The notes under the pieces were generated by a model. It saw nothing but the letters and a program-made list of their open reading frames with translations. It did no database searches and had not been told where the DNA came from. A stretch of DNA of 64,000 nt from an uncultured Myxococcales bacterium (lineage in GTDB: Bacteria > Myxococcota > B64-G9): positions 50 to 64,049 of the forward strand of contig CAZWFN010000016.1 in assembly GCA_964633205.1 (NCBI GenBank), given 5' to 3'. Shown here piece by piece: positions 1,153-32,743 of the stretch. Both the position numbers and the translations under genes were made by a program. Every line of letters begins with the position of its first letter. The stretch's first letter is position 1.

Positions 1153-2199
1153 ATGAAGGCGCCCGAGATCATCAAGCTGACGCAGACGTCTCAGGCCTCC
1201 GGCTGAGCGGCCAAGCTCGGGCCGGGGGACCTGGCCCAAGCCTTGTGTGGCCTGGACCTGACGCCGCATCCTGACCTGCTCGTCGGCCTGTCGGTGGCCG
1301 ACGATGCGGGGGTGCTGCGCCTGAACGACGAGCTGGCCCTGGTGCAGACGGTGGACTTCTTCACCCCCATCGTGGACGAGCCGGAGCTGTTCGGCCGCAT
1401 CGCGGTGGCCAACGCCCTGTCCGATGTCTACGCCATGGGCGGCCGGCCGGTCTGCGCCATGAACGTGGTCGGCTTCCCCCGCGAAAAATTGCCCATGGAG
1501 CTGCTGCAGCGCTGCCTGGCCGGCGGGCTGGACAAGCTGCGCCAGGCCGAGGTGGCCCTGGCCGGCGGCCACAGCGTGGACAACCCGGAGTTCCTCTACG
1601 GCCTGGCCGTCTCGGGTCTGGTCCACCCGCAGCGCATCCTGACCAAGGGCGGCGTGCGCGACGGCGACGCGCTGGTGCTGACCAAGCCGCTGGGCACCGG
1701 CATCGTCACCACCGCGCTCAAGGGCGGGCTGGCCGACCCGGAGGCGGTCGCCGCGGTCAGCGACTCGATGGAGGCGCTGAACCGTGCGGCGGCCGAGCGG
1801 ATGGCCGACTTCGCGGTCCACGCCTGCACCGACGTGACCGGATTCGGCCTGCTGGGTCACGCCGCCGAGATGGTGCTCGAGGCCGCGGTCGGGCTGGAGT
1901 TCGACGCCGGCCGGCTGCCCCTGTTTCCCGGAGTGGCGGAGTACGCCGCGATGGGCCTGCTGCCCGGCGGCCTGCACCGCAACCGGGCCCACATCGCCGA
2001 TCGGGTGGATGTGGCCGCCGCCGTGCCCGCCCACCTGGCCGATGCGGCCTTCGACCCGCAGACCTCGGGCGGGCTGCTGATCGCGCTGGCGGCCGACGAG
2101 GCCGGCGCCCTGGCCGCCGCCTTGGGCGACGACGGCATCGACGCCGCCGTGGTGGGCCGCGCCACCGCCGCCCTGGCCGGCCGGCTGGCGCTGCGCTGA
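1153..2199 (+). CDS. selD: Selenide, water dikinase (selenophosphate synthetase) SelD, with selenocysteine encoded by in-frame UGA at 1204-1206
   Basis: From ATG 1153: MKAPEIIKLTQTSQASG-U-AAKLGPGDLAQAL aligns with E. coli SelD LTQYSHGAGCGCKISP, placing the TGA at the Cys17 position. The rest (TVDFFTPIVDEPELFGRIAVANALSDVYAMGG...HACTDVTGFGLLGH...PQTSGGLL) matches SelD family. The ORF track starts at TTG 1243 only because it stops at the UGA. Confidence 0.85.
1207..1245 (+). promoter_or_regulatory. Candidate bacterial SECIS hairpin immediately 3' of the selD UGA
   Basis: GCUCGGGCC (1215-1223) can pair with GGCCCAAGC (1233-1241), 8 of 9 bp, enclosing a G-rich apical loop GGGGGACCU. It begins about 8 nt after the UGA, as a bSECIS should. 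Confidence 0.4.
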
Positions 2200-2330: not shown

Positions 2331-5300
2331 GTGGACGGGGCGCGCCATTCGATCGGGTTGGTGTGGGCGGGGGTGATCGCGCTGGCTGGCTGCGGTTCGG
2401 CCGGCGACCCATGCCGGGGCATCGACTGCGGGGCCCACGGCTCTTGCGCCGAGGTCGAAGGCGCGGCCGTGTGCAACTGCGACCCTGGCTACGTGGCCGA
2501 CGGGCTGGCCTGCATAGTCGATCCGTGTACCCAGTCGCCCTGCGTCTACGGCTCCTGCCGGCCGTCGGGCCGCAACGCGATCTGCGATTGCTACCCGGGC
2601 TATGCCGGCGCCCGTTGCGACAGCTGCGCACCGGGCTACCGGCTCGAGGGCATGGCCTGCATCGAGGGCTCGCCCTGCGATGACGACCCCTGCGTCTACG
2701 GCCGCTGCCACAGCGAGGGCGGCCTGCCGGTCTGCGACTGCTTTACCGGCTACGCCGGTGCGGTCTGCGATCGCTGCGCCGCGGGCTACCACCCGGTGGG
2801 CCTGGAGTGCGTGTCGGACAGCCCCTGCGATCCGGACCCCTGCGTCCACGGCAGCTGCTCGGTCGCCGGCGGCCGGGCCGTGTGCGACTGCGACGAGGGC
2901 TATGCCGGGCCCAGCTGCGACAGCTGTGCGCCCGGCTACCACGCCGAGGGCCTCGAATGCGTGCCCGACGTGGCCGGCCCCTGCGACCCCAACCCCTGCG
3001 CCGAGGCCCACCGCCACGTCTGCCAGGTGGAGGGCGACGGGTACGTCTGCCTGTGCGATCCGGGCTACCACGACCAGGGCGGGGTCTGCGTCGAGGACGC
3101 GGCCGACCCCTGCCAACCCAACCCCTGCCAGCAGGTGCACCGCACGGTCTGCCAGCCCGACGGCGGCGGCCACGTCTGCCTGTGCGACGCCGGTTACCAC
3201 GACCAGGACGGGGTCTGCGTGGCGGACAGCGCCTGCAGCCCCAACCCCTGCACCGAGCCCAACCGCGGCGTCTGCCAGCTCGACGGCGACGGCCACGTCT
3301 GCCTGTGCGATCCGGGCTACCACGACGAGGCCGGCGCCTGCGTCGCCGATCAGGTCTGCGACCCGGCGACCACCTGCTCCGGCCACGGCAGCTGCACCGG
3401 CGACGGGCTGGAGTGCGACTGCGATGCGGGCTGGGCCGGAGCGCACTGCGCCGGGTGCGCCGCCGGCTACCACCCGGATGGCGGCGACTGCGTGCCGGAC
3501 TCGGCCTGCGAGCCCAACCCCTGCCAGCAGGTGCACCGCACCCGCTGCGTCGAGGACGGCGACGGCCACGTCTGTCTGTGCGACGCGGGCTACCAGGACG
3601 TCGGCGGCCTGTGCGTCGGCGTTTGCGATACGGTGGTCGCATACCAGCCCGGCGCCGGCGAGGACATCAGCGCGCTCTACATCCGCGGCGGGTTCAACGA
3701 CTGGGCGCTGAGCGACCCCTTCACCGAGAACGGCGACGGCTCGTGGACCGCGGTGCTCAGCCTGCCGACCGGCGACTACGCCTACAAGCTCTACGAGGCC
3801 GGCGAGGACCGCTGGTTCGAGGATCCCGGCAATCCCTTCTTCATGTGGAACGCCGGTATCCGCAACTCACGGCTGCGGGTGCGCGACTGCGACCGGCCGC
3901 GGCTGCGGCTGGTCGACCAGCCCGCGGTGGATGCGGCGGCCGGCATAGTGGCCTTTCAGGTGGAGTACATCGACGGTGCCCAGGCGGCCGGCGCGGATGC
4001 GGCCAGCTGCAGCGCCGGCCGCAACGACGCGCCGCTGGCCGGGGCCTTCGACCCGGACAGCGGGGTGTTCAGCATCGACGATCAGGATCTGGCCGAGGGC
4101 AAGTACGCCTACCGCTTCCGGGCCTGCGACGCCGCCGGCCGTTGCGCCGAGCCGCTCTACGTGCCGGTCTGGGTGGAGAGCGAGGACTTCGCCTGGCGCG
4201 ACGCGGTGCTCTACTTCGCCATGACCGATCGCTTCGTCAACGGGGATATGGGCAACGACGATGCGGTGGGCGATCCGGTGGATTACAAGGCCGACTGGCA
4301 GGGCGGCGACTTCGCCGGCTTGTTGCAGAAGATCGAGAGCGGCTACTTCGAGGATCTGGGCGTCGATGCCATCTGGATCTCCTCGGTGACCCAGAACACG
4401 GGCGGTTACGGCCACGGCCTCGGCGGCGATCAGCACCAGTACTCGGCCTACCACTCCTACTGGCCCATCGCCACCGGCTGGCGCGAGGGGGTCGAGCTGC
4501 CGGGGGTGCAGCCGGTCGACCCCCACTTCGGCGATCTCGACGAGCTCAAGGCCGTGGTGCGCGCCGCCCACGCCCGCGGCATCCGGGTGCTGGTGGACTT
4601 CGTGGCCAACCACGTCCACGCCGACAGCCCGCTGTGGCAGGCGCACCAGGCCGACGACCCGCCCTGGTTCCACCTGCCGACCTATGTCTGCGGCTGGGAT
4701 CAACCGGTGATCTGCTGGTTCACCGACTACCTGCCGGACTTCGAGTACAAGACCCTGGCGGTGATGGACGCGGTGGTCGAGCACGCCATCTGGTTGATCC
4801 GCGAGACCGATGTCGACGGCTTCCGGCTCGACGCGGTCAAGCACATGATCGACGACTTCGCCCTGACCCTGCGCGGCCGCATCGAGCAGGCCATCACCAC
4901 CACCGGCGAGCGCTTCTACATGGTGGGCGAGACCTTCACCGGCGAGGGCGAGGGCGAGGCGGCGCTGATCCGCCACTACGTGCGCCCCGAGATGCTCGAC
5001 GGCCAGTTCGACTTCCCGCTGTACTGGTCGCTGGTGGCCACCTTCCTGCGCGAGGAGCGCGACTTCTTCGCCCTGGAGCAGATGCTCTCCGATTTCGAGG
5101 GCTTCTACGGCGGCTGGGCGGTGATGTCCAACTTTTTGGGCAACCACGACGTCTGCCGCGCCGTCTCGCACGCCAGCGGCGACATCGGCGACCTGTGGGG
5201 CAACGGTTCGCAGGAGCAGGGCTGGAACAACCCGCCGGCCGATCCGGCGGACGAGACGCCCTACCGCCGGCTGCGGCTGGCCTGGACATTCTTGATGACC

Positions 5301-5729
5301 GTGCCCGGCGTGCCGCTGATCTACTACGGCGACGAGTTCGGCCTGGCCGGCGCCGGCGATCCCGACAACCGCCGCATGATGCGCTTCGGCGCCGAGCTCA
5401 ACAGCCACCAGCAGGCCACCCTGGCCCACGTGCAGGCGCTGACCGCGGTGCGCCACGCCCACCCGGCGCTGCGCCGCGGCCAGCGCAGCCAGCTGTTCAA
5501 CGACGGCGCCTTCTGGGCCTACGCCATGGTATACGGCGCCGACCGGGTGGTGGTGGTGTTCAACCGCAACCCGGCGCCGGCCACCCGGGCGCTGTCGGTG
5601 GCCGCGGCCGGGCTGGGCGACGGCACGGTCATGCGCGACGTGCTGCACGACAGCCAGCAGACGGTCAGCGGCGGCGAGCTGTCGGTCACCCTCGACGGCC
5701 GCGACTCGGCCGTGTTCGTGGTGGAGTGA
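2331..5729 (+). CDS. Secreted lipoprotein: about 10 laminin/EGF-like Cys repeats, a CBM-like module and a GH13 alpha-amylase catalytic domain
   Basis: GTG start with GGAGG RBS. Signal peptide with lipobox (VIALAGC). Repeating CxCxxGYxGxxCDxCAxGY and PNPCxxxHRTxCxxDGxGHVCLCDxGYHD units. Then YIRGGFNDWA (CBM-like), DAIWISSVTQN, GFRLDAVKHM and FLGNHD motifs of glycoside hydrolase family 13. Confidence 0.8.
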   Translation: MDGARHSIGLVWAGVIALAGCGSAGDPCRGIDCGAHGSCAEVEGAAVCNCDPGYVADGLACIVDPCTQSPCVYGSCRPSGRNAICDCYPGYAGARCDSCAPGYRLEGMACIEGSPCDDDPCVYGRCHSEGGLPVCDCFTGYAGAVCDRCAAGYHPVGLECVSDSPCDPDPCVHGSCSVAGGRAVCDCDEGYAGPSCDSCAPGYHAEGLECVPDVAGPCDPNPCAEAHRHVCQVEGDGYVCLCDPGYHDQGGVCVEDAADPCQPNPCQQVHRTVCQPDGGGHVCLCDAGYHDQDGVCVADSACSPNPCTEPNRGVCQLDGDGHVCLCDPGYHDEAGACVADQVCDPATTCSGHGSCTGDGLECDCDAGWAGAHCAGCAAGYHPDGGDCVPDSACEPNPCQQVHRTRCVEDGDGHVCLCDAGYQDVGGLCVGVCDTVVAYQPGAGEDISALYIRGGFNDWALSDPFTENGDGSWTAVLSLPTGDYAYKLYEAGEDRWFEDPGNPFFMWNAGIRNSRLRVRDCDRPRLRLVDQPAVDAAAGIVAFQVEYIDGAQAAGADAASCSAGRNDAPLAGAFDPDSGVFSIDDQDLAEGKYAYRFRACDAAGRCAEPLYVPVWVESEDFAWRDAVLYFAMTDRFVNGDMGNDDAVGDPVDYKADWQGGDFAGLLQKIESGYFEDLGVDAIWISSVTQNTGGYGHGLGGDQHQYSAYHSYWPIATGWREGVELPGVQPVDPHFGDLDELKAVVRAAHARGIRVLVDFVANHVHADSPLWQAHQADDPPWFHLPTYVCGWDQPVICWFTDYLPDFEYKTLAVMDAVVEHAIWLIRETDVDGFRLDAVKHMIDDFALTLRGRIEQAITTTGERFYMVGETFTGEGEGEAALIRHYVRPEMLDGQFDFPLYWSLVATFLREERDFFALEQMLSDFEGFYGGWAVMSNFLGNHDVCRAVSHASGDIGDLWGNGSQEQGWNNPPADPADETPYRRLRLAWTFLMTVPGVPLIYYGDEFGLAGAGDPDNRRMMRFGAELNSHQQATLAHVQALTAVRHAHPALRRGQRSQLFNDGAFWAYAMVYGADRVVVVFNRNPAPATRALSVAAAGLGDGTVMRDVLHDSQQTVSGGELSVTLDGRDSAVFVVE

Positions 5730-5733
5730 GACC

Positions 5734-8649
5734 ATGCGCTGTAGCGACTCGCGTTGGTGGATTCCGGGGGCGGTGCTGGGCCTGGCGCTCGGCTGGGCGG
5801 CCTGTGGCGGCGGGGGGGATGGGCCGTGCGCCGGGGTCGATTGCTCGCTGCACGGCTCCTGCCGGGTGGAGGCGGGCCAGCCGCGCTGCGACTGCGATCC
5901 GGGCTACGTGGCCGACGGGCTGGTCTGCCACCCGGACTGGTGCCGCGACATCGTCTGCGACCACGGGGTCTGCGTGCAGGACGCCGAACGCGGCGGCTGC
6001 GACTGCCAGGCCGGCTGGGCCGGGCCGAGCTGCGATGGCTGCGCCGCGGGTTACCATCTGGACAACGGCGCCTGCCTGCCGGATGCCCCCTGCGACACCG
6101 ATCCCTGCATCCACGGGGTCTGCCGGGTGGTCGCCGGCGAGGAGGTGTGCGACTGCGACACCGGCTACGCCGGCGAGCGCTGCGACCGCTGCGCCGCGGG
6201 CTACCACGCCGAGGGGCTGGACTGCGTGCCCGACGAAGACAACCCCTGCGCGCCCAACCCCTGCGACGAGGCGCACCGCAGCCGGTGCACCCCGGACGGC
6301 ACCGGTGGCTATGACTGCGGCTGCGACGCCGGCTACCACGACGAAGGGGGGCAATGCGTGCCCGACGACGACAACCCCTGCCAGCCCAACCCCTGCGACC
6401 AGCCGCACCGCAGCCAGTGCACCCCGGACGGCGCCGGCGGCTACGACTGTGGCTGCGACCCCGGCTACCACGACCAGGGCGGCCAGTGCGTGCCCGACGG
6501 CGGCGACCCCTGCGATCCCAACCCCTGCGATGCGCCGCACCGCACGCTGTGTACGCCGGACGGTGACGGCGGCTACGCCTGCGCTTGCGACCCCGGCTAC
6601 CACGAGGTGGCGGGTGCCTGCCTGCCGGACTGCGACGCGGCCGCCGACCTGTGCGCCGCCGCCCAGCCGTCTTTCGGCACCCTGGTCTCGTCCAACGGCC
6701 ACTGCGCGGTGGGCTACGATCTGGCCGGGCGCCGGGCCGACAGCTTCCTCGAGCACCTGTACCGCAACTGGGACGAAGGGGTCTGGACGCGCGATCTGCT
6801 CTACGATACCTACCTCGGCCTGCGCGGCGGCGACCAGCAGCTGTGGTTGAATGCGGCCGCGCCGCTGCGGGTGGAGTACCAGGCGCAGAGCCATGTGATC
6901 CACACCGTCCACCGGCTGGGGGTCTTCCAGGTCGACACCTGGATCTACGCGCCCTTCGAGCTCGAGCGACCGGCGCTGGTGATCGTCGGCCGGGTGACCA
7001 ACACCGGCGATCGGACCGAGTCCGCCTCGCTGTTCAGCCTGCACAACTACCACGTCGGCAACACCACGGTGGAGCAGCCGGTCGAGCCGGACGCGGCCGA
7101 GGAGCGCCTCGTCTACCAGCCGGACAGCGGCGCCTACCTGGAGACCGGCCCGGGCGGGGCCCTGCTGCACCGGCCGCTGGATGCCACCAGCCACCACGGC
7201 TGCAGCCCGGGCAACCCCTGGCAGGCCTTGACGGCCGGGCAGGACCTGGCCGACACCGCCGACAGCGGCGTCGGCGACGATCGGGTGGCCGGCTTCCAGC
7301 GCGACTTCGAGCTGGCGCCGGGCGCCTCCGGCTGGCTGGGGGTGGTCACCGCCTTCGACCGTTTCGGCGACGGCGACACCCTGGCGGCCGAGCTCGAGGC
7401 GGCCTACGCCGGGCTCGACGGCCGGACCGCGCTGCAAGCCGCCCTGGACGCCTTCGAGGCCTGGCGCAATCCGCCGCCGGCCGGGCTCAGCCCGGCCGAG
7501 CGCTGGGTGTGGCGCCAGAGCGAGGCGGTGCTGCGCCAGGGCCAGGTACGCGAGACCAGCGACCTGTCCCACGGTCAGATCGTGGCCTCGCTGCCGCCGG
7601 GCAACTGGAACATCTGCTGGATGCGCGACATGGCCTACGCCATCGTGGCCCTGGCGCGCACCGGGCACCTGGTCGAGGCCCGCGCCGCGCTGGAGTTCGT
7701 GCTGCTGGCCGACTCCGGCCACTACCAGCAGGACTACGTGGGCGTGCCCTACCAGGTGACCATCACCCGTTACTTCGGCCGCGGTAAGGAGGAGACCGAT
7801 TTCAACGCCGACGGGCCCAACATCGAGTACGACGGCTTCGGGCTGTTTCTGTGGTCGCTGGGCGCCTACCTGGACGCCGGCGGCGACGGCGGCCTGGTCG
7901 ACGCGCACTGGGAGACCATCCGCGATCGCATCGCCGGGGCCCTGGTGGCGCTGATCGACCCGCAGACCGGCCTGATCGCGGCCGACTCGTCCATCTGGGA
8001 AGTGCACTGGAACGGCAACCAGAAGCGCTACAGCTACACCTCGCTGGCCGCCGCCCGCGGCCTGTGCGCCGCGGCCGAGCTGGCCGCGGCCCGCGGCGAG
8101 GACGCCCTGGCCGCCGACTGGCGCGCGGCGGCGATCTCCATCCGCGACGCCCTGGCCGCCCGGGTGGTGGATGCCGATCAGGTACTGGCCTCGTCCTACG
8201 AAGAGCTGCAGTCCGGCGCCGGCTACCACGACGTGGCCTCGGTGGAGGCCTTCGACTGGCGCCTGTTCGATCCGGCTGGCGCCGTCGCCGCCGCCACCCT
8301 GGATTCCTTCGACGCGCTGCTGCGGGTGGCCAGCGGCCGCGGGTTTTTCCGCAACGACGACGGCGGCTGGTACGACTCGCAGGAGTGGGTCTACGCCGAC
8401 CTGCGGGTGGCCATCGCCGCCCGGCGCGCCGGCCGGACCGAGACGGCCGATCGCCTGCTGGGCTGGATCGGCGCTCAGGCGCTGGCCAACCACGGCATGA
8501 TCGCCGAGCTGCACCATCCGCTCGATTCCAGCTACGAGGGCGAGATCCCCATGGTCGGCTACGGCGGCGGCGCCTACATCCTGGCGCTGCTCGATCGCGA
8601 GCAGCCCGCTTCCCCGGAGCCGGCCTGCGGCTCCTGGGAGGCGCGGTGA
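5734..8649 (+). CDS. Lipoprotein with EGF-like Cys repeats fused to a GH15 glucoamylase/glucodextranase-like (alpha/alpha)6 domain
   Basis: ATG with GGAG RBS. Lipobox LGWAAC. Repeats of the same type as the upstream gene. NWNICWMRDMAYAIVAL matches the GH15 WxRD-type motif. About 650 aa catalytic region. Confidence 0.7.
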   Translation: MRCSDSRWWIPGAVLGLALGWAACGGGGDGPCAGVDCSLHGSCRVEAGQPRCDCDPGYVADGLVCHPDWCRDIVCDHGVCVQDAERGGCDCQAGWAGPSCDGCAAGYHLDNGACLPDAPCDTDPCIHGVCRVVAGEEVCDCDTGYAGERCDRCAAGYHAEGLDCVPDEDNPCAPNPCDEAHRSRCTPDGTGGYDCGCDAGYHDEGGQCVPDDDNPCQPNPCDQPHRSQCTPDGAGGYDCGCDPGYHDQGGQCVPDGGDPCDPNPCDAPHRTLCTPDGDGGYACACDPGYHEVAGACLPDCDAAADLCAAAQPSFGTLVSSNGHCAVGYDLAGRRADSFLEHLYRNWDEGVWTRDLLYDTYLGLRGGDQQLWLNAAAPLRVEYQAQSHVIHTVHRLGVFQVDTWIYAPFELERPALVIVGRVTNTGDRTESASLFSLHNYHVGNTTVEQPVEPDAAEERLVYQPDSGAYLETGPGGALLHRPLDATSHHGCSPGNPWQALTAGQDLADTADSGVGDDRVAGFQRDFELAPGASGWLGVVTAFDRFGDGDTLAAELEAAYAGLDGRTALQAALDAFEAWRNPPPAGLSPAERWVWRQSEAVLRQGQVRETSDLSHGQIVASLPPGNWNICWMRDMAYAIVALARTGHLVEARAALEFVLLADSGHYQQDYVGVPYQVTITRYFGRGKEETDFNADGPNIEYDGFGLFLWSLGAYLDAGGDGGLVDAHWETIRDRIAGALVALIDPQTGLIAADSSIWEVHWNGNQKRYSYTSLAAARGLCAAAELAAARGEDALAADWRAAAISIRDALAARVVDADQVLASSYEELQSGAGYHDVASVEAFDWRLFDPAGAVAAATLDSFDALLRVASGRGFFRNDDGGWYDSQEWVYADLRVAIAARRAGRTETADRLLGWIGAQALANHGMIAELHHPLDSSYEGEIPMVGYGGGAYILALLDREQPASPEPACGSWEAR

Positions 8650-8734
8650 GCCGCGGCCGGACCGGTTCCTCGGCGGGGCTCGGGCCGATCGCCGCGCTGT
8701 TGTCGAACGAGGCGGCGTGCATCGGGGGAAGCGG

Positions 8735-9238
8735 ATGAAATGGTGCTCTCTTTGGCTGTGTCTGATGCTGGCGGCCTGCAGCGGCAACGGGGCCGGGCCG
8801 GATGCCGGCTTCGACCCGGACGCTGATCCCTATCCGCCGGACGCCTGGGATCCTGGCGATCCCGACAGCGACCCCTGCGCCGGCGACGGCGGGGCCGACG
8901 GCGGGGCCGACGGCTGTGTGGCCGGGCCGGTCGACTGTGCGCGCGACGACTGCGTGCACGGCGAGTGCATCGACGTGCCCGGCGGGGCCGATTGGTGCGA
9001 TTGCCACAGCGGCTACGCCGGCATGCTGTGCGACCGCTGCGCCGCCGGCTACGTGGCCGTCGGCCTGGAGTGCGTGCCGGCCGGCGGCTGCGCCGACAGC
9101 CCCTGCGTCCACGGCACCTGCCGGCCGCTGCAAGACGGCGATTTTCGCTGCGACTGCGATGCGGGTTACGCCGGCCGGCTGTGCGACCGCTGCGCCGAGG
9201 GCTACCATGTCGAGAACCTGCGCTGTGTGCCCGACTGA
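8735..9238 (+). CDS. Small lipoprotein made only of the EGF-like Cys-repeat module
   Basis: MKWCSLWLCLMLAACSG lipobox. Then CDCHSGYAGMLCDRCAAGY and CDCDAGYAGRLCDRCAEGY repeats paralogous to the N-termini of the two hydrolases. A GTG start at 8717 is an alternative. Confidence 0.6.
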   Translation: MKWCSLWLCLMLAACSGNGAGPDAGFDPDADPYPPDAWDPGDPDSDPCAGDGGADGGADGCVAGPVDCARDDCVHGECIDVPGGADWCDCHSGYAGMLCDRCAAGYVAVGLECVPAGGCADSPCVHGTCRPLQDGDFRCDCDAGYAGRLCDRCAEGYHVENLRCVPD

Positions 9239-9320
9239 ATCGGAGGGTTGAAAAAACCATGAGTCACAGGGCCACTGGGTTGGATCTGCGGCGCCGCACC
9301 TTGCGAGCGGGAGAGTATCG

Positions 9321-10805
9321 TTGAACGCGCACAAACGACGAGCGATGGGAGGCTGCGGCTCGGCCCTGGTGGTCGTGGGCCTGCTTGCGATGACCGCCGC
9401 GGCCCGGTCCGCGAATGCGGAGGGCGAAGAAGAAGCCCTTGATGCGGCGGCCGGCACGGCCGCAGCCGCGCCCGGCCCCCAATCCAACCCGGCGGCTGGC
9501 GACGAAGCGGGCTCCATCTGGGAGCACTTCCAGTTCGGCTCCTACGGCCGGGTGCCGGTGGGCTCCGACCTGCAGGGCGGCAGCGGGCGCCAGGTCCGCC
9601 TGGTGGCCCACCCGCCGCGGCTGCTGGAGGGGCCCTACGCCGAGGTCGATCTGGGCTACACCCACCGGGTGCGCTCCAGCGGCACCACCTTCCACACCCA
9701 GTTCACCCTGGCGCTGGGCGAGAAGCTGTTCCACTTCGACGGCGACTGGGCCGCCGAGCTGGCCGTGCGCAACCTCTACCTGGAGGTGCGCGACGTGCTG
9801 GTGCCGGGCCTGCGCCTGTGGGCCGGCTCGCGCATGTTCCGCGGCGACGACATCTACCTGCTCGACTTCTGGCCGCTGGACGAGCAGAACACCGTCGGCG
9901 GCGGGGCGGCCTACCGCTTCGGCGCCACCGAGCTGCAGCTGCACCTGGGGATGAACCGGCTCGACGACGCCTTCCAGACGCAGTTCGTGACGGTTCCAGG
10001 GGAGGACTTCGGCCAGCGCGAGGTGTTGTTCATGGATCGCCAGCGCACCGTGGTCAGCCTGCGCGGCGAGCACCGCTTCCAGCTGGCGCAAGCGCTGCAG
10101 CTCAAGGCGGTGGCCTATGCCGAGAGCCACACCCTGCCCGGCGGGACCCGCCGCAGCGACGACGGCCAGCACCAAGAGAAGCTGCCGGCCGATGTGGGCT
10201 TTCTGGGCGGGGTGGAGGCCAGCCTGTACGGCTGGGCCGAGGCCTCGCACGTCAACCTGTACCTGCGCTACGCCACCGGCCTGGCCGCCTACGACGAGCT
10301 GGGCGTTCCCTTCGGCGTCGACGCCGAGAAGAAGGCGGCCGGCGCCCGCGAGCTGCTGCTGGGCCTGGCCGCCAACCACGAGTTCGGCGACAGCGCCGGC
10401 CTGCTGGTCGGCGCCTACGGCCGCTACTTCATCGACGCCGATCCCAACGTCTACGACCGCGACGACGCCTGGGAGCTGGCCCTGGCGCTGCGGCCGGCCT
10501 GGTACATCACCGAGCACCTGCACCTGATCGGCGAGGCCAACCTGCAGTACCAGCGCCCCAACGGCCTGTCGCCCGAGACCATGGCCCACGAGACGCCCCT
10601 GGCCTTCCAGCTGGGCATCATGCCGGCCATCAGCCTGGGGCGCGGTTCCTACTCCCGGCCGCAGCTGCGCCTGATCTACGCGGTCACCTTGCTCAACCGG
10701 GCCGCGCGGCTGACCTACGCCGCCGAGGATGCCCTGCGCGGTCGCAGCGTGCAGCACTACCTGGGCCTGGGCGTGGAGTGGTGGTTCCACTCCTCGCGCT
10801 ACTGA
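9321..10805 (+). CDS. Outer-membrane beta-barrel porin, plausibly carbohydrate-selective
   Basis: Signal peptide (ALVVVGLLAMTAAARSANA). Alternating amphipathic strands. C-terminal aromatic end (...VEWWFHSSRY). Embedded in the glucan-hydrolase cluster. Start is TTG 9321 or ATG 9345. Confidence 0.5.
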   Translation: MNAHKRRAMGGCGSALVVVGLLAMTAAARSANAEGEEEALDAAAGTAAAAPGPQSNPAAGDEAGSIWEHFQFGSYGRVPVGSDLQGGSGRQVRLVAHPPRLLEGPYAEVDLGYTHRVRSSGTTFHTQFTLALGEKLFHFDGDWAAELAVRNLYLEVRDVLVPGLRLWAGSRMFRGDDIYLLDFWPLDEQNTVGGGAAYRFGATELQLHLGMNRLDDAFQTQFVTVPGEDFGQREVLFMDRQRTVVSLRGEHRFQLAQALQLKAVAYAESHTLPGGTRRSDDGQHQEKLPADVGFLGGVEASLYGWAEASHVNLYLRYATGLAAYDELGVPFGVDAEKKAAGARELLLGLAANHEFGDSAGLLVGAYGRYFIDADPNVYDRDDAWELALALRPAWYITEHLHLIGEANLQYQRPNGLSPETMAHETPLAFQLGIMPAISLGRGSYSRPQLRLIYAVTLLNRAARLTYAAEDALRGRSVQHYLGLGVEWWFHSSRY

Positions 10806-10818
10806 TGGGATGTGCCCC

Positions 10819-12912
10819 ATGAACGCGAGCGAGCGATTTTCGTTTTTCCCGCGCTGCTGCGCCGGCTTGCTGGCAGCGCTGGCGCTGTGGGCCGGCGGCT
10901 GCGTGTCGCCGCCGGAGCCCGGCAGCGGTGCCCTGAGCGACAACGTGGTCGACTGGCGCGACGAGATCATCTACCAGATCCTGGTCGACCGTTTCGCCAA
11001 CGGCGACGCCAGCAACGACGTCGGCGTGGCCGTCCACGACCCGTCGGCCTTCCACGGCGGTGACTGGCGGGGCATCCGGGACAAGCTCGATTACCTGGAG
11101 GCGCTCGGGGTGACCGCGCTGTGGATCTCGCCGGTGGTCAAGAACGTCGAGTCCGACGCCGGCTTTTCGTCCTACCACGGCTACTGGGCCCAGGACTTCG
11201 AGCGCACCAACCCCCACTTCGGCGATGCGACGGCGCTGCGCGAGTTGGTCGACGCCGCCCACGCGCGCGGCTTCAAGGTCATCCTGGACATCGTCACCAA
11301 CCACGTGGGCCAGGCCTTCTACTACGACATCAACAAGAACGGCCGGCCGGACGAGTTCTTCATCGGCCAGGGCGGCGAGATCATCCCCATCGGCCAGGCC
11401 GAGTCGCCCAGCGAGCTGACCCGCATCAGCGAGTGGGATCCGGACTTCGATCGCGACGGGGTGCAGGCCTGGACCTCGCTGGGGCCCTCGGGCCTGGCGC
11501 CGATCGAATTCGTCCACCAGCCGGCCATCAACCGGGTGCCGCCGCAGCCGGAGCTCTTCGCTCAGCCATGGGCCTACAACGCCAAGGGGCGGGTGACCGT
11601 CTGGAGCCACCCCGCCGTCTGCGGCTGCGCCGACTGGGGTTGTCCCTGGGACGACGCCTGCCGCCGCGAGCAGGAGATCCTGGGCGACTTCCCGGGCGGG
11701 CTGAAGGACCTGGCCACCGAGCGCCAGGACGTGCGCGACGCGCTGTTTCGCGTCTACGCGCGCTGGATCGACATCGGCGACTTCGACGGCTTCCGCATCG
11801 ACACGCTCAAGCACGTGGAGCACGACTTCTGGGCCGACTTCTGCCCGCGCATCCGGGCCCACGCCGCCGAGCGCGGCAAGCACAACTTCCTGCAGTTCGG
11901 CGAGGCCTTCGACGGCTCGGACGAGCTGTTGGGCGCCTATACCCAGGGCGCCGGCGTCGACAGCGTGTTCTACTTCAGCCAGTACTACACCGTGTTCCGC
12001 GGCGCCATGCTGGGCGACGGGGCGCGCACCTGCGAGATCGAGCGGCTGCACTGCCGGCGGCTGGGCTGTGTTGCCGACCCCTGCGGCGAGGGCGCTGCCA
12101 TCGAGGCGCTCTACTCGGACGCGCCCGAGGCCCAGGGCCCGGTGGGCGCCGACGGGCTGGGGCTGAACGCCCGCCAGCTGGTGGTCAACTTCCTGTCCAA
12201 CCACGACGTGGGCCGCTTCCTGTTCTTCATGCCCGATGCCTGGCCGCACTCCGAGAAGCGCCGCCTGCTGCTGCTCGGGCTGACCTACCTGCTGACCGTC
12301 GACGGCATCCCCTGTCTGTACTACGGCGTCGAGCAGGAGTTCGCCGGCGGCAACGACCCGGCCAACCGCGAGACCCTGTGGCGCCAGACCGAGTACACCC
12401 ATGCGGTGTGGAAGGACGGCCGCTGGCAGCAAGCCAACAAGACCTACGACGCCGACGGCGACGGCGCGGCCGATACCGTGTGGCGGCCCTTCGACACCGA
12501 AAATCCCGTCTTCCGTTTCATCCAGCGGCTCAACCGGCTGCGCAGCGAGCACGTGGCGCTCAGGCGCGGCGAGCTGGTGGTGCGTTGGAGCACCAGCGAC
12601 AGCGGCGGCCAAGACCACGGGCTGTTCGCCTTCGAGCGCGTGCATCCCGACGAGCGGTTGCTGGTGCTGCTCAACCTCGACGCCCGCCACCTGCCGGCCA
12701 GCCCCTCGGACCAGGCCCCGGCGGCGCGCTCCGCCCGCGACGGCGCCCTGATGCCCGTCGGCTTCGCCCCCGGCACCCGCCTGGTCGATCTGCTGCATCC
12801 CGACTACGCGGTGACGGTCGGCGACAGCGGCTGCACGGCCGCAGCCGGCCAGGGCTGCCTGGACGCCACCGTCCCGGCCCACGCCGCCCGCATCCTGGCG
12901 CCGGGCTCTTGA
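10819..12912 (+). CDS. GH13 alpha-amylase family lipoprotein
   Basis: MNASERFSFF... then lipobox WAGGC. DEIIYQILVDRFANGD, GGDWRGIRDKLDYLEALGVTALWISP, YHGYWAQDF, GFKVILDIVTNHVG, GFRIDTLKHV and FLSNHDVGRF are canonical GH13 regions. Confidence 0.8.
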   Translation: MNASERFSFFPRCCAGLLAALALWAGGCVSPPEPGSGALSDNVVDWRDEIIYQILVDRFANGDASNDVGVAVHDPSAFHGGDWRGIRDKLDYLEALGVTALWISPVVKNVESDAGFSSYHGYWAQDFERTNPHFGDATALRELVDAAHARGFKVILDIVTNHVGQAFYYDINKNGRPDEFFIGQGGEIIPIGQAESPSELTRISEWDPDFDRDGVQAWTSLGPSGLAPIEFVHQPAINRVPPQPELFAQPWAYNAKGRVTVWSHPAVCGCADWGCPWDDACRREQEILGDFPGGLKDLATERQDVRDALFRVYARWIDIGDFDGFRIDTLKHVEHDFWADFCPRIRAHAAERGKHNFLQFGEAFDGSDELLGAYTQGAGVDSVFYFSQYYTVFRGAMLGDGARTCEIERLHCRRLGCVADPCGEGAAIEALYSDAPEAQGPVGADGLGLNARQLVVNFLSNHDVGRFLFFMPDAWPHSEKRRLLLLGLTYLLTVDGIPCLYYGVEQEFAGGNDPANRETLWRQTEYTHAVWKDGRWQQANKTYDADGDGAADTVWRPFDTENPVFRFIQRLNRLRSEHVALRRGELVVRWSTSDSGGQDHGLFAFERVHPDERLLVLLNLDARHLPASPSDQAPAARSARDGALMPVGFAPGTRLVDLLHPDYAVTVGDSGCTAAAGQGCLDATVPAHAARILAPGS

Positions 12913-12955
12913 TGTGTCCGCTAAGCTTCTTCCTGGAGCGAGGAGGGCAGGGACC

Positions 12956-14395
12956 ATGAAGATGGCATTGTTGCTGGTGGGATTCACCGCCCCACTGGTG
13001 CTGGGCTGCGCTGGCGGCGGTAAGGACGATCGCGACGCCGGCCAGCCCTGGCCCGGATGCCCGGGCGGCGACGCCGCGGAAAGCCTGGCGGCCAAGGCGG
13101 CGGCTTTCGACCGGGTGGCGGCCGAGCGGCACCTGGGGCCGGATCGGTTGCTGCGCAATGTCTACTTGACCGCGGACCTGACGGGCGTTGCCAAATACCA
13201 GCACGTGGAGAACGTCATCCTGTGGAGCGGCATGTACCTGGCCTCCCAGGCCTTTCGCTATGCCGTCACCGGCGCTGCCGCCGCCCAGGACAACGCCCGC
13301 CGGGTGCTGCTCGGCCTGACCGATCTGACCCGGGTCACCGGCGTGACCGGCCTCTACGGGCGCTCGCTGGATCGGCCGGACGTGCGCTACAATTTCGACG
13401 GCCGGGGCAGCGCGGGCTGGACCGACTCGAACGCCGCGGACTACCCGGGCTGGGCCTTCCGCAACGACGTGTCCAAGGACGGCTACGCCGGTTTGATGTT
13501 CGGCTACGCGGCCGCCATGGAGCACTTCGACGATCCCCAGCTGCTGGCGCAGGTGCGCGCCCGGCTGCGCGAGGTGGCCGACCATCTGCTGGGCAACGGG
13601 CTGCAGATCGTGGACAGCGACGGTCAGGTGACCGAGCACGGCGCGTTGTACCACACCGCCTTCGACGACTACCCGGGCTTCAACGCCATGCTGGCCTCGT
13701 CCTGGATCAAGGTGGCCGCGTACGAGCTGCAGGACCAGGCGCTGGACGATTTCTACTACGGCTGTCTGATGGGGATGCGCGCCAGGGTGGATTGCCCGGA
13801 CATCGAGGAGATGGACTTCGGCACCTACATCGAGAGCATGGAGGACTACCTGTTCTTGTTCCAGCCCGACTGCAAGCAGAACTACGACAACTTCGACATG
13901 TGCTACCAGGCCATCTACCCGCTGCTGCGCCGCGAGCAGGATCCGCAGCTGCGCAGCCGGCTGCTCGATGTGCTCGAAAGCGAGATGTTCCACACCGCCG
14001 ATGCCCGCTACCAGAGCATGGCCGAGATCGGCTGGGCTTTTTTCACCTACGCCTACGTGGCCCTGTCCGGGGTCCGGGCGGGGCAGGACCCGGTCATCGA
14101 CCGGGCGGTGGAGCTGGCCGCCTGCAATCTGATCGCCTTCCCGGCCGAGAAGGTCGAGCGGCCCATCCCGGCCGGCACGCAGCCCGAAGTCTGCCGCACC
14201 CGGCTGGACGAGCCGGCCGCGGCCGAGCCCATCCCGCTGGCCGAGTACCGCTTCGACAATTACCTGTGGCGGCTGGACCCGTTTGAAATCCAGCAAGGCC
14301 ACCCGGGGGATGAACGCCAGCTCTACTCCCCCGAGGATTACCTGGTGGCCTACTGGCTCGGACGTCTGCATGGCATCCTGAGCGAAGACATGTAG
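12956..14395 (+). CDS. Hypothetical lipoprotein, no recognisable domain; last gene of the glucan locus
   Basis: GGAGG RBS. MKMALLLVGFTAPLVLGC lipobox. Coding-like composition, no family recognised. Confidence 0.55.
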   Translation: MKMALLLVGFTAPLVLGCAGGGKDDRDAGQPWPGCPGGDAAESLAAKAAAFDRVAAERHLGPDRLLRNVYLTADLTGVAKYQHVENVILWSGMYLASQAFRYAVTGAAAAQDNARRVLLGLTDLTRVTGVTGLYGRSLDRPDVRYNFDGRGSAGWTDSNAADYPGWAFRNDVSKDGYAGLMFGYAAAMEHFDDPQLLAQVRARLREVADHLLGNGLQIVDSDGQVTEHGALYHTAFDDYPGFNAMLASSWIKVAAYELQDQALDDFYYGCLMGMRARVDCPDIEEMDFGTYIESMEDYLFLFQPDCKQNYDNFDMCYQAIYPLLRREQDPQLRSRLLDVLESEMFHTADARYQSMAEIGWAFFTYAYVALSGVRAGQDPVIDRAVELAACNLIAFPAEKVERPIPAGTQPEVCRTRLDEPAAAEPIPLAEYRFDNYLWRLDPFEIQQGHPGDERQLYSPEDYLVAYWLGRLHGILSEDM

Positions 14396-18018: not shown

Positions 18019-18534
18019 TCAGAAGGGAGCGAAGCCGCCGGCGGCCCAGTAGTCCTGCTTCAGGCTGTCGTGCTGGCGCAGCAGCGCATCGTAGTGGCCG
18101 GCCTCCCAGCGCGCCAGGTGATCGTAGAAGCGGCGGATGTTCTCGTCGCCGGCCTTTTCGGCCTGCTCCCGGTAGTAGCGCTCGGAGTTGATCTCCAGCT
18201 GGATGCCGATCGACAGCGCGCTCATCTCGTAGTGCGCGTCGCCGATGCGCCCCTTGAGTCGGTCGGAGAAGATCGGGTTGGGCCCGGACAGATCGGCCGG
18301 CGTGCCCAGCTCGGCCTGGGGGTCGATTTCGCCGCGCTCGATGAGCGATTGGCGCTGGTGCTGCAAAAAGCGCAGGTGATCCAGCTCTTCGCCGGCCAGG
18401 CGTTGGAAGACCTGCTGGCCCTTGGGATCGGAGGTGGCCCGGGAGGCCATCTGGTAGAAGTGGTGGCCGTCGGTCTCGGTGCGCATGGCGTGCTCCAGCC
18501 CGGCGACGATCTCCTTGCGTGCTTCGGCGTCCAT
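18019..18534 (-). CDS. Rubrerythrin/ferritin-like diiron protein
   Basis: MDAEARKEIVAGLEHAMRTETDGHHFYQMAS...GEELDHLRFL...ERYYREQA: paired ExxH-type ferritin-like motifs. Confidence 0.7.
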   Translation of the reverse strand: MDAEARKEIVAGLEHAMRTETDGHHFYQMASRATSDPKGQQVFQRLAGEELDHLRFLQHQRQSLIERGEIDPQAELGTPADLSGPNPIFSDRLKGRIGDAHYEMSALSIGIQLEINSERYYREQAEKAGDENIRRFYDHLARWEAGHYDALLRQHDSLKQDYWAAGGFAPF

Positions 18535-18568
18535 CGCGAATGCTCCCGCCTCGGCTGGCCCTTGGGGC

Positions 18569-19072
18569 TCAGCCGGATTCCAGGTCGAACTCCTGGTAGT
18601 CGAAGTAGAAGCCCATGCCCTGTAGGTGGTCCAGCTCGGCCCGGACCAGTGCCAGGTGGCCCTGTTCGATCTCGACGAAGGGCTCGAACAGCTCGGCCTG
18701 CGCGGGCGGCAGCTCGGCCACCACCCGCTTGTAGAAATCTGAGGTCTGCTGCTCGACCTCCAGCGCACGGGTGGCCAGGTCGATCTCGTCCGGGCACTCC
18801 TTCTGCTCCAGCGGCTGCTTGAGCTTCATCACGCCGGCCTCGATCTTGACCCGCGGTGGTACCGCCGAGCGCAGCTTGGTCGGATTCACCCGCCCGTCGC
18901 GCTTCCACTCGTCGAGCATCTGCTGCAGGGTGTCCAGGTGCTGCTGCTCCTCGTCGGCCAGCACGGAGAAGACCCGGCGGCCCTTGGTGTCGCCGCAGTC
19001 GGCCGCGGCCTGCCGGTAGACGTCGCGCACCTTGGTCTCGTACTCCATGGCGGTTCGGATGGCTTGCTCCAT
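18569..19072 (-). CDS. Ferritin-like/rubrerythrin-family protein
   Basis: MEQAIRTAMEYETKVRDVYRQAA...EEQQHLDTLQ...EQQTSDFYKRV...EQGHLALV: two ferritin-like half-sites. Confidence 0.65.
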   Translation of the reverse strand: MEQAIRTAMEYETKVRDVYRQAAADCGDTKGRRVFSVLADEEQQHLDTLQQMLDEWKRDGRVNPTKLRSAVPPRVKIEAGVMKLKQPLEQKECPDEIDLATRALEVEQQTSDFYKRVVAELPPAQAELFEPFVEIEQGHLALVRAELDHLQGMGFYFDYQEFDLESG

Positions 19073-19143
19073 GTCCACGGCGGTGCTCCCTTCGTCAGCC
19101 GGCCGGCCCGGGGGATGCCCGGGCCGGCCGGAAAACCATTGGC

Positions 19144-19665
19144 TCAGGCTTCCTCTCCACCCGTGGTGGGAATGGCGACCTGGCGTTGGCTGAGCTCGCG
19201 ATCGAGCATCAGCACGCCGTGGCCGTGCTCGCCGACCAGCTCGAGGTTGTCCACGATGCGCGAGACGCTCGATTCCTCCTCGACCTGCTCGTCGACGAAC
19301 CATTCCAGGAAGGTCCGCGCCGGCCGATCCTTGGCCTCCTCGCTCAGGCCGACCAGCTCGTCGATCTTGCCGCTGATGAAGCGCTCGTGCTCCAACGCGT
19401 CCTTGAAGGCCTCCAGCGGCGTCTCCCAACGGGTCTTCTTGATTCCCAGCGGTTGCATGGTCACCGCGCCGCCGCGATCCAGGATGTGATCCATGAAGCG
19501 CTGGGCGTGGCCCATCTCCTCCACCGCCTGCGAGCGCATCCACTGGGCCATGCCGTCGAGGGAGCGTTCCTGGAACCAGGCGGACATGGCGAAGTAGAGG
19601 TAGGCCGATTCGGCCTCGTACTTGATCTGGTCGTTGAAGGCCTGCTTGACCTTGTCGTCGATCAT
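19144..19665 (-). CDS. Non-heme ferritin (Ftn family)
   Basis: MIDDKVKQAFNDQIKYEAESAYLYFAMSAWF...AVEEMGHAQRFMDHI...ALEHERFISGKIDEL is the bacterial ferritin pattern. Confidence 0.8.
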   Translation of the reverse strand: MIDDKVKQAFNDQIKYEAESAYLYFAMSAWFQERSLDGMAQWMRSQAVEEMGHAQRFMDHILDRGGAVTMQPLGIKKTRWETPLEAFKDALEHERFISGKIDELVGLSEEAKDRPARTFLEWFVDEQVEEESSVSRIVDNLELVGEHGHGVLMLDRELSQRQVAIPTTGGEEA

Positions 19666-19713
19666 CGCGTCTCTCCTTTCCGCCGACCGGGGTGGTTGGC
19701 GCGAGCGGGCGGT

Positions 19714-20229
19714 CTATCCGACCAGCTCGCGGACCGCCCGCAGGACGGCGTCGTAGTCCGGCTCGTGGCCGATATCGGGCACCAGCTGGACGTAGCGGAT
19801 CACGTCATCGGCGTCGATGACGAATACCGATCGGGCCAGCAACCGCAGCTCGGGGATCAGCATGCCGTAAGCGCTGCCGAATGCGGCCTGGCGGTGATCC
19901 GACAGCACGAGCAGCCGCTCGCTGCCGGTGGCGGCGCACCAGCGCTCCAAGGCGAACGGCAGGTCCATGCTGATGGCCAACAGCTGCAGCGCTTCGTCGA
20001 AAGCGGTGATCTTGTGATCGAATCGGCGGGCCTCGCGATCGCCGATCGGGGTGTCCAGCGATGGCAGCGACAGCAGCACCCGCGGCCGGCCCGCCAGCGT
20101 GCCGAGACGAAACGGACGGGCCTGCGGATCGAGCGCGGTGAAGTCGGGGGCCTTGTCGCCCACCTGCAGCTCGTCTCCGCCCAGGGCCAGCGTTCGACCC
20201 TGCTGGGTCACTGTGCGTTCGGTGCTCAC
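19714..20229 (-). CDS. tpx: Thiol peroxidase (Tpx)-family protein with Gly at the peroxidatic Cys position
   Basis: Aligns along its length with E. coli Tpx (KAPDFTA..., ISMDLPFALERWCAATG resolving-Cys region, EPDYDAVLRAV). SLDTPIGD replaces SIDTGVCA. Codons checked on the DNA at 20041-20055. Confidence 0.7.
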   Translation of the reverse strand: MSTERTVTQQGRTLALGGDELQVGDKAPDFTALDPQARPFRLGTLAGRPRVLLSLPSLDTPIGDREARRFDHKITAFDEALQLLAISMDLPFALERWCAATGSERLLVLSDHRQAAFGSAYGMLIPELRLLARSVFVIDADDVIRYVQLVPDIGHEPDYDAVLRAVRELVG

Positions 20230-20256
20230 CGCGCACCCCCCGATCGAAATCGCCGC

Positions 20257-20724
20257 TCAGTTCTCGGTCAATACCTGCTCGTCGTACTCCATCTCGAAGC
20301 GCAGCTTGTGCTTGGCCTCCTCCTGGGCCAGACCCTGCAGCAGCCCCTGCAACGCGGCATCCTCGGCCACGTTGGCCAGCTCGGTGTAGAGGCGGAACGA
20401 GGCCTTCTCCTTCTTCATGGCCAGGATCAGCGCATCCTGGTAGTCCATGTTGGGCGTCGGTTCGGCGTCGACCAGGTACTCGCCGATCTTCAGGTCCAGC
20501 ACCTTGCCCGCCGGCAAGCCGGTGGCGCCGCCCTGCTTGACGTTTTGCAGCTTGGCCTTGTGCCCTTGCTCCTCCTTGGCGAAGTCCTCGAACACCTTCT
20601 TCATCCAGGGCCGGTCGAGCTTGCTGGCCAGGTCGGTGTAGAAGGCGGCCGCCTTCTCCTCTTCGGAGATGGCGAAGTCGAGGATTTCATCCACCGAGTT
20701 GAACTGCTTCATCTTCTCCTCCAT
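20257..20724 (-). CDS. Ferritin-like (rubrerythrin/erythrin family) protein
   Basis: EEEKAAAFYTDLASK...FAKEEQGHKAKL...MKKEKASFRLYTELA...AQEEAKHKLRFE: two ExxH motifs. Confidence 0.65.
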   Translation of the reverse strand: MEEKMKQFNSVDEILDFAISEEEKAAAFYTDLASKLDRPWMKKVFEDFAKEEQGHKAKLQNVKQGGATGLPAGKVLDLKIGEYLVDAEPTPNMDYQDALILAMKKEKASFRLYTELANVAEDAALQGLLQGLAQEEAKHKLRFEMEYDEQVLTEN

Positions 20725-20754
20725 TGGTTCGGGTCGTTCGGGTTGATCGATCGC

Positions 20755-21957: not shown

Positions 21958-22841
21958 GATGCCTCCTCCTCGAGCGCCTCCTGCTCGACCACCTCGAGGT
22001 TCTCGTCGACGAACTCGCGCAGCTTGGTCTGGACCACGGTGGACAGGGTGAAGTTGGCCACCTTGCACGAGGCGCAGGTGCCGCGCAGGCTGACGATGAC
22101 GTCGTCGCCGTCGAGATCGATCAGCTCGATGTCGCCGCCGTCCTTCTGCAGCTGGGGCCGGATCTCGCGATCGATGGTCTCCTGGATGAGCTGGATCTTC
22201 TGGATGTTGGTCAGCTTCTTGCGCTTGGGCTCGGCCGGCGGGGCCGCCTCCGCCTCCGCCTTCTCGGCCTTGACGGTCTCCAGGATCTCGGCGATCTGAT
22301 CCTGGCAGCCGCCGCAGCCGCCGCCGGCCTTGGTGTAGTTGGTCACCTCTTCGATGGTGGTCAGGCCGTTTTCGCGGATGGCGCGCTCGATCTCGATCCG
22401 GGTCACCCCGAAGCAGACGCAGACCACGTCGACGTCCTGCTTGGGTTGATCGGCCGGGACGCGACCTTCCTTCTTGGCCCGGTAGTCATCGATGGCGGCC
22501 AGCAGCGCGTCGCGGCCCATCACCGAGCAATGCATCTTCTGCTCCGGCAGGCCACCGAGGTAGTCGGCGATCTCCTTGTTGGTGATGCGGGCGGCCTCGT
22601 CCAGGGTCTTGCCCTTGACCAGCTCGGACAGAGCCGAGGAGGAGGCGATGGCCGAGGCGCAGCCGAAGGTCTGGAACTTCACCTCCTGGATGCGCTCCTG
22701 CGCGTCGACCTTGAGCATCAGCTTCAGCGCATCGCCGCAGGCCAGCGAGCCGACCAGCCCGGTGCCGTCCGGGTTTTCGATGGCACCCACGTTGCGTGGG
22801 TTGCGGAAGTGCTCCATCACCTTTTCGTTGTAGTCCCACAT
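21954..22841 (-). CDS. nifU: Full-length NifU Fe-S scaffold (IscU-like N-domain, central [2Fe-2S] domain, C-terminal Nfu domain)
   Basis: MWDYNEKVMEHFRNPRNVG...GSLACGDALKL...FGCASAIASS, central CGGC, C-terminal CASC. Confidence 0.85.
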   Translation of the reverse strand: MWDYNEKVMEHFRNPRNVGAIENPDGTGLVGSLACGDALKLMLKVDAQERIQEVKFQTFGCASAIASSSALSELVKGKTLDEAARITNKEIADYLGGLPEQKMHCSVMGRDALLAAIDDYRAKKEGRVPADQPKQDVDVVCVCFGVTRIEIERAIRENGLTTIEEVTNYTKAGGGCGGCQDQIAEILETVKAEKAEAEAAPPAEPKRKKLTNIQKIQLIQETIDREIRPQLQKDGGDIELIDLDGDDVIVSLRGTCASCKVANFTLSTVVQTKLREFVDENLEVVEQEALEEEAS

Positions 22842-24132: not shown

Positions 24133-24176
24133 GCCAGCCGCGGACCGAAGCCCCCGCGGGAGCCAGGTGGCGCGAT

Positions 24177-31789: not shown

Positions 31790-31793
<4 letters not shown>
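30852..31793 (-). CDS. cysE: Serine O-acetyltransferase CysE (long form)
   Basis: [49 protein letters not shown] hexapeptide repeats. GTG start overlaps the cysK stop (GTGA). Confidence 0.8.

Positions 31794-32743
<950 letters not shown>

Follow-up and report, generated by a model that had tools for sequence, protein, structure and literature searches.

Our analyses of a 64,000-nucleotide stretch of DNA from an uncultured Myxococcales bacterium (positions 50 to 64,049 of contig CAZWFN010000016.1, assembly GCA_964633205.1; referred to below as the window, with positions counted from its first letter) indicate that positions 1153-2199 of the forward (+) strand very probably encode a full-length selenide, water dikinase (SelD) with selenocysteine (Sec) as its catalytic N-terminal residue. 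The codon read as Sec is an in-frame UGA (TGA at 1204-1206, + strand), and it is followed, within the coding sequence, by a conserved and covarying RNA hairpin that has the features of a bacterial Sec insertion sequence (SECIS) element, or bSECIS. Sec-type selD genes of this kind are well known and common, and the present gene is a textbook case of them.

The full selD coding sequence consists of 348 codons and a stop, with the putative Sec at codon 18. Its reading frame extends from an ATG (1153-1155) to a TGA (2197-2199), which is the true terminator, and is broken once, by the TGA at 1204-1206; from 1206 onward the frame is open up to the terminator. Upstream the frame is closed by an in-frame TAG (1132-1134), and from our reading of the sequence the ATG at 1153 is the first possible start past this codon. 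The translation reads MKAPEIIKLTQTSQASG before and AAKLGPGDLAQAL after the UGA codon 18, and the GC content at third codon positions of the frame (GC3) is 0.95, in a sequence with an overall GC content of 71%. For protein searches the TGA at 1204-1206 was replaced with Cys. The resulting protein exceeds the curated equivalog cutoff for SelD (NCBIfam selD equivalog TIGR00476; Pfam AIRS and AIRS_C) over the full length of the profile, with a score of 372.4 bits against a cutoff of 125 and with residues 8-316 matched to profile positions 1-310 of 311, and it also scores 325.1 bits with the model NF002098, for which the cutoff is 299. Because the TIGR00476 match starts at residue 8, at profile position 1, the homology extends into the stretch that precedes the TGA. 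Escherichia coli SelD (PDB 3U0O) aligns with it end to end (residues 6-345, E = 2.6e-74), and this Cys-type enzyme shares with it the Lys20 equivalent and all of the AIRS and AIRS_C core motifs; the two differ at residue 17 of the E. coli protein, which is Cys (codon TGC or TGT) where the window has UGA. Outside its own species cluster, no homologue exceeds 63-71% identity to the SelD protein, and the closest named SelD, from a Myxococcales metagenome-assembled genome (MAG), is 63% identical.

In the alignment with 3U0O and with Cys-type homologues, the UGA (residue 18) falls on Cys17 of E. coli SelD, and an AAG codon at 1213-1215 (+ strand), which encodes Lys21, falls on the catalytic Lys20 of the Gly-rich N-terminal loop. 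The N-terminal Gly-rich loop by which SelD is recognized, where Sec or Cys occupies the site of Cys17 and Lys that of Lys20, is present. Where the Cys-type homologues read GAGCAAKL, the SelD of the window reads ASG and AAKL on the two sides of the UGA, and columns A19 and A20 of the DNA alignment A2 (a gapless alignment of 64 distinct Sec-type selD genes) are invariant. In order to read this region at the DNA level, the sequences of the 80 closest species-representative genomes (GTDB) were fetched and read upstream in frame, which showed that the codon at the Cys17 position is TGA in 63 of them, TGC in 10 and TGT in 6, with the contig being cut in 1. Every one of the 63 Sec-type and 16 Cys-type genes has Leu at position -9, Thr at -8 and Gly at -1 before this codon, and no stops are found in the 12 codons that precede the TGA among the 63 Sec-type genes. 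Downstream of the UGA, the AAK and GPGDL motifs are conserved, and conservation of the protein is thus seen on both sides of this codon.

The TGA is also kept in seven contigs (L001-L007) that originate from seven different samples and represent either the same organism or one that is 91% related. Positions 1153-1260 (108 nt) are exactly the same in five contigs from five samples, and the contigs from the two further samples (L006 and L007), which represent a 91%-identical relative, keep the TGA as well. When the window is compared with this relative, not one difference is found in the 99 nt at 1153-1251 (a result with a chance probability of P ~0.0015 or lower), although the upstream intergenic region is 87.5% and the rest of selD 93.7% identical. 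The N-terminus that begins at ATG 1153 (MKAPEIIKLTQ) is the same in L006, and the intergenic DNA directly upstream of it differs. The retention of TGA at the same codon is, as judged from these comparisons, far beyond chance occurrence. Two scans of the window for in-frame TGA codons with coding-like flanks, carried out for other selenoprotein genes, yielded selD only, plus adjacent same-frame genes and noise.

The candidate SECIS upper stem-loop is located at 1219-1237 (+ strand), where 8 base pairs (bp) between 1219-1226 and 1230-1237 enclose the apical loop GGA (1227-1229). The upper stem starts 12 nt and the loop 20 nt past the UGA (spacer 1207-1226), and this stem is predicted by every fold that begins at or after the UGA. 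A lower stem (approximately 1207-1217 paired with 1239-1251), which is formed partly by rare codons (CTC, CAA, TTG and TGT), is predicted to flank the upper hairpin, giving an extended SECIS region at 1207-1251 (+ strand); the fold that includes it has a minimum free energy (MFE) of -27.9 kcal/mol, and the conservation of the lower stem across lineages is below that of the upper stem. The consensus described for bSECIS elements (PMC13188914) calls for an apical loop of 3-9 nt, an upper stem of 4-16 bp, at least one G in the first two loop positions, a UGA-to-loop spacing of 16-37 nt, and a free energy of -7.5 kcal/mol or lower. The hairpin in the window, with a loop of 3 nt (GGA) that opens with GG, a stem of 8 bp, a spacing of 20 nt and a free energy of -16.2 kcal/mol, agrees with this consensus in each of these respects.

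Because the GC-rich codons of the sequence Gly-Pro-Gly-Asp-Leu pair easily on their own, three controls were run. The first of these was covariation within the 64 Sec-type genes of alignment A2, where 70.7% of the hairpin cells pair and sliding the 3' partner leaves at most 50% paired, and where 51 double-change cells are observed versus 21.8 in shuffles. The covariation score is 0.269 versus 0.164 in the shuffles (0 of 500 as high) and no more than 0.166 with the partner slid; examples of covarying stems are GGGCCGGG/CCTGGCCC, TCTCCAGA/TCTGGAGA, and AGTCCAAG/TTTGGACT. In the second control, the 17 codons after the UGA were recoded synonymously with the window's own codon usage, and only 0.6% of the 3000 variants had a hairpin as stable as -16.2 kcal/mol. 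Rare codons are clustered at 1207-1257 (viz. GGG twice, which accounts for 16% of Gly codons, CTC (15%), CAA (9%), TTG (7%), and TGT (9%)), and every one of them feeds the predicted upper or lower SECIS stem. The third control was a comparison of Sec-type with Cys-type genes. Relative to their own synonymous recodings, the Sec-type genes fold better (mean z of -1.23, n=62), which the Cys-type genes do not (mean z of -0.22, n=16; P = 0.006), and a near-perfect hairpin in register is found in 39 of the 62 Sec-type genes but in none of the 16 Cys-type genes (P = 2e-6). By these controls, the hairpin is under selection as RNA, and it behaves as a SECIS element.

These results bear out what an earlier note on this DNA had described from the letters alone. 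The note had pointed out that the list of open reading frames (ORFs) starts selD at TTG 1243, which is the case, and that reading from ATG 1153 restores the conserved N-terminus, as is now evident from the TIGR00476 match from residue 8 and from the invariant Leu, Thr and Gly residues. It had placed the TGA on Cys17 of the E. coli enzyme, where the 3U0O alignment also puts it with Lys20 kept, and it had marked a stem-loop at 1215-1241, an interval that RNA folding resolves into the upper stem and two pairs of the lower stem. Its suggestion of a candidate SECIS agrees with the bSECIS model (PMC13188914), covariation, synonymous recoding, and the contrast between Sec-type and Cys-type genes, and its statement that Sec-containing SelD occurs in some bacteria accords with the literature (PMC1794560; PMC4561486). 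The observation of the UGA and the hairpin in selD is thus confirmed, and the interpretation of the gene as a Sec-type selD is supported.

Among the Sec-type selD genes of alignment A2, the hairpin that follows the UGA occurs in two registers that exclude each other, and both of them covary. Register one, which is used in the window, occupies columns 25-43 (window 1219-1237) and has its loop, mostly GGA or GGT, 20 nt downstream. Register two occupies columns 39-55 (window 1233-1249), has its loop, mostly GTT or GTG, 33 nt downstream, and is seen, for example, in Bacillus infantis, Photobacterium, Pyrinomonadaceae, and several Clostridia-like genomes; 23 of the 62 Sec-type genes fit neither register perfectly. 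As an element of the present gene, the second register (columns 39-45/49-55, corresponding to window 1233-1239/1243-1249) was rejected, with only 4 of its 7 positions paired in the window by our own count.

A number of observations weigh against the reading of this locus as a Sec-encoding gene with a SECIS element. The MFE of the whole region after the UGA is unexceptional (z of -1.1 to -1.7 relative to dinucleotide shuffles and of -0.66 relative to synonymous recodings), and the signal is confined to the specific hairpin, not the whole region. At 71% GC, the Gly-Pro-Gly-Asp-Leu codons themselves supply part of the pairing potential. No matching SECIS family was found in Rfam, either in the whole window at the gathering threshold or at 1100-1320 with permissive settings, where only sub-threshold microRNA and small RNA noise was returned. 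A competing fold (1191-1208/1215-1234, z = -2.6) forms a hairpin (1191-1234) that holds the UGA within its stem, in the 5' arm, and has a free energy of -41.7 kcal/mol for 1190-1260. No clear Shine-Dalgarno (SD) sequence precedes ATG 1153 in our own reading of the sequence. Further, selA, selB and tRNA-Sec were not found in the 64-kb window, and the extra 10 kb that contig L001 provides upstream is also without sel genes or tRNA-Sec.

The competing fold was itself examined in the 64 Sec-type genes and was rejected as a conserved structure, its pairing and covariation being equal to the shuffled expectation. A ribosome with the UGA in its A site would unwind this fold, and it could, in this GC-rich lineage alone, have an effect on translation initiation or on the stability of the mRNA. 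Scans for promoter and terminator consensus sequences at 900-2400 found nothing.

The process that we propose is that of Sec insertion as it is understood for bacteria. Translation would begin at ATG 1153, and when the ribosome reaches the UGA at 1204-1206, the mRNA hairpin (stem 1219-1237, loop GGA), located just outside the ribosome, would serve as the bSECIS. The hairpin would tether the elongation factor SelB, carrying GTP and Sec-tRNA(Sec), and the UGA would then be decoded as Sec with no termination. The product, with a loop ASG-U-AAK in which U and K are the equivalents of Cys17 and Lys20 of the E. coli enzyme, would use selenide and ATP to make selenophosphate. As the enzyme that provides the selenium donor which its own Sec residue requires, SelD would be expected to depend on the availability of selenium for the synthesis of its full-length form. 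From what is established for Sec decoding in bacteria, we infer that SelB binds, that Sec is actually inserted, and that selA, selB and selC are present in other parts of the genome.

The closest parallels for the gene are the known Sec-type SelD proteins (e.g., those of Haemophilus influenzae, Aquifex aeolicus, Moorella thermoacetica, Geobacter, and Anaeromyxobacter dehalogenans), which belong to the same family, carry their only Sec at the same point of the N-terminal Gly-rich loop, and have the SECIS in the same place, in the coding sequence directly 3' of the UGA. The construct used for the crystal structures of the Aquifex SelD (2YYE/2ZOD) reads SSGCAAKVGPGDL, compared with ASG-U-AAKLGPGDL in the window. 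There is no difference in kind between these proteins and the present one, and the hairpin of the window is distinguished by being unusually GC-rich and by its extension through a lower stem of rare codons. Cys-type selD genes differ in being without the in-register hairpin (0/16). In the survey of Zhang et al. (2006; PMC1794560), SelD is listed as a selenoprotein in Anaeromyxobacter, Geobacter, Desulfovibrio, Moorella, Clostridium, and others, including many Deltaproteobacteria and Clostridia, and Anaeromyxobacter, a myxobacterium, is thus already listed as a Sec user. In the study of Mariotti et al. (2015; PMC4561486), Sec is reported for 19% of prokaryotic SelD genes, with a position that never varies and a bSECIS inside the coding sequence. 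The SECIS of E. coli fdhF, which is the experimental prototype for SelB-dependent recoding, is likewise a stem-loop in the coding sequence right after the UGA, with a small apical loop in which G comes first, and the spacing of the element in the window is within the 16-37 nt consensus range (PMC13188914). However, the primary sequences of the two elements are unrelated, and the loop in the window has only 3 nt (GGA) with no bulged U evident.

The conservation of this region must also be set against other explanations of the TGA. If the TGA were a genuine stop, the locus would be either a pseudogene or a gene for an N-terminally truncated SelD starting at TTG 1243. Gene callers do start the protein downstream (calls of 307 and 318 residues; P0001, P0002, P0121), a G-rich, SD-like GGGGGA (1224-1229) is located 13 nt before TTG 1243 in our own reading, and the window holds no Sec machinery. 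However, such a truncated SelD would be without the loop of Sec/Cys17 and Lys20, and mutants of E. coli SelD have established that the Cys17-Lys20 loop is needed for activity. Protein-level conservation of the 17 codons preceding the TGA is also seen in 63/63 Sec-type genes, and these codons are 100% identical in the relative whose intergenic DNA is only 87.5% identical, and a stop that is limited to one codon, kept across several phyla and then followed by a covarying hairpin is not how a pseudogene behaves. We consider a genuine stop at this position to be very improbable. A sequencing or assembly error, or a reassigned code in which TGA stands for Trp or Gly, could be suggested by the homologue P0094, which has W at the Sec position, presumably as a result of translation with table 4. 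This explanation has to contend with five contigs, from as many samples, that are identical over the TGA and the 108 nt around it, and with the TGA in L006 and L007 from two more. In addition, TGA is the stop codon of 30 of the 38 predicted genes in the window, selD among them, so that the genetic code is the standard one, with TGA not reassigned. The sequences at hand effectively refute both error and reassignment, which we regard as the least probable of the explanations.

There is similarly little to be expected from a reading in which the UGA is read through as an amino acid other than Sec, either through a near-cognate Trp or Cys tRNA or, when selenium is scarce, through Cys-tRNA(Sec), with the hairpin acting only as a stimulator. 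Read-through of UGA as non-Sec with the aid of a local stem-loop is known for the insect SPS1-UGA genes (PMC4561486), and Sec at residue 18 is a prediction, as are selA, selB and selC outside the 64-kb window. Against this, the hairpin has the features of SelB-binding bSECIS elements, in that G-G opens a small apical loop at a spacing of 20 nt (PMC13188914), the same design is present in genomes that are listed with a Sec-type SelD, such as Moorella and Clostridium relatives (PMC1794560), and in one related locus (L027) a tRNA-Sec is located directly upstream of a Sec-type selD. The organism might also lack the canonical selA, selB and selC, with the UGA and hairpin decoded in another manner, e.g., by non-Sec read-through that the hairpin stimulates, or, in a milder variant, SelD might be its sole selenoprotein and the Sec system be kept just for SelD; these too are, in our view, slight chances. 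The insertion of Sec at residue 18 of a full-length SelD is the reading that we prefer, and the Sec-decoding machinery of the organism would presumably be encoded elsewhere in its genome.

With regard to Sec machinery and selenium-related genes, a scan of the window revealed no tRNA of any kind, and no formate dehydrogenase is present among the window genes. In a Vicinamibacterales MAG (L027:2609-2705), a tRNA-SeC with the anticodon TCA precedes the Sec codon of a Sec-type selD by about 230 nt; in the scan of 60 related loci, no other tRNA-Sec turned up within 3 kb of selD. The selenouridine trait, in which SelD and SelU (YbbB) act on the 2-thiouridine made by MnmA, calls for selU (ybbB/mnmH), typically in an operon with selD, and no selU or other rhodanese/SelU-type gene was found among the genes of the window. 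The earlier note had also counted mnmA, which encodes the tRNA 2-thiouridylase, as part of the selD locus. This did not hold, as the real mnmA (PF03054, E = 1.2e-50) is located at 28961-30088 (-), 27 kb from selD, and the ORF adjoining selD (2602-3711) that may have been taken for mnmA is in the wrong frame, with a GC content of 0.94 at codon position 2 and no Pfam hit. Because mnmA is a near-universal housekeeping gene, it says nothing about the use of selenouridine. Genes near mnmA on the same strand (30852-32743 (-) and 32814-33419 (-) among their coordinates) encode a hexapeptide-repeat transferase (possibly a serine acetyltransferase), a pyridoxal phosphate-dependent enzyme of the PALP family (possibly a cysteine synthase), and an Rrf2-family regulator, with no selU nearby.

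The homologues of this SelD in the database are annotated in a manner that agrees with the claim, also made earlier, that pipelines often truncate the gene. The best 120 homologues in the database comprise 59 full-length Cys forms, with the sequence LTQTVKGAGCAAKLAPGDL, and 60 N-terminally short calls (median 319 residues) that start just after the Sec codon; U is recorded in none of them, and W at the site in 1. The homologue P0094 reads GAGWASKL, with the W at the Sec position apparently due to translation of TGA with genetic code 4. The public calls for the selD of the window and its near-identical relatives (P0001, P0002, P0121) have 307-318 residues, start past the Sec codon, and are without the catalytic loop. 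The main value of the present results is in annotation, as a start moved to 1153 and a codon 18 marked as Sec restore the model of a functional enzyme. They also flag the organism as a likely selenium user and predict selA, selB and selC, and further selenoproteins, elsewhere in its genome. Current understanding is unchanged by them, SelD being already one of the two most widespread bacterial selenoproteins, together with FdhA (Zhang et al., 2006; PMC1794560).

The selD gene stands alone between a response-regulator/GGDEF gene and an alpha-amylase gene. The response-regulator/GGDEF gene (3-968) is located upstream of selD on the opposite strand, and directly downstream of selD is a cluster for alpha-glucan utilisation (2331-14395, + strand), which encodes two alpha-amylase-family proteins, a GH15-like (glucoamylase-like) protein, a LamB porin, and a small protein. 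Three proteins of this cluster match eukaryote-type EGF/laminin-EGF domains (PF00008 and PF00053), which is unusual for bacterial glycosidases. A weak match to PF11684 and proteins with MopE and EGF repeats are also found in the window, and we take these to suggest myxobacteria; with the Myxococcales MAG as the source of the closest named SelD, the lineage is probably myxobacterium-like.

A redox and iron-sulfur cluster at 18019-24937 contains two rubrerythrin-like genes and genes for a ferritin, an AhpC/TSA peroxiredoxin, NifU, a ZIP transporter, and a glutaredoxin. Within this cluster, a NifS-like cysteine desulfurase is encoded at 20755-22068, and cysteine desulfurases can deliver selenium to SelD (PMC9312934). 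For the peroxiredoxin, the glutaredoxin and a pyridine-nucleotide disulfide oxidoreductase, the Pfam domains are matched end to end and the ORFs are uninterrupted; the lack of an in-frame TGA suggests that the peroxiredoxin and glutaredoxin of the window are Cys rather than Sec forms. A gene at 42252-45443 (-) encodes a protein of 1063 residues with an unusual architecture, in which an MFS/TLC-type transporter region, HEAT repeats, and a C-terminal cyclic-nucleotide-binding domain are combined.

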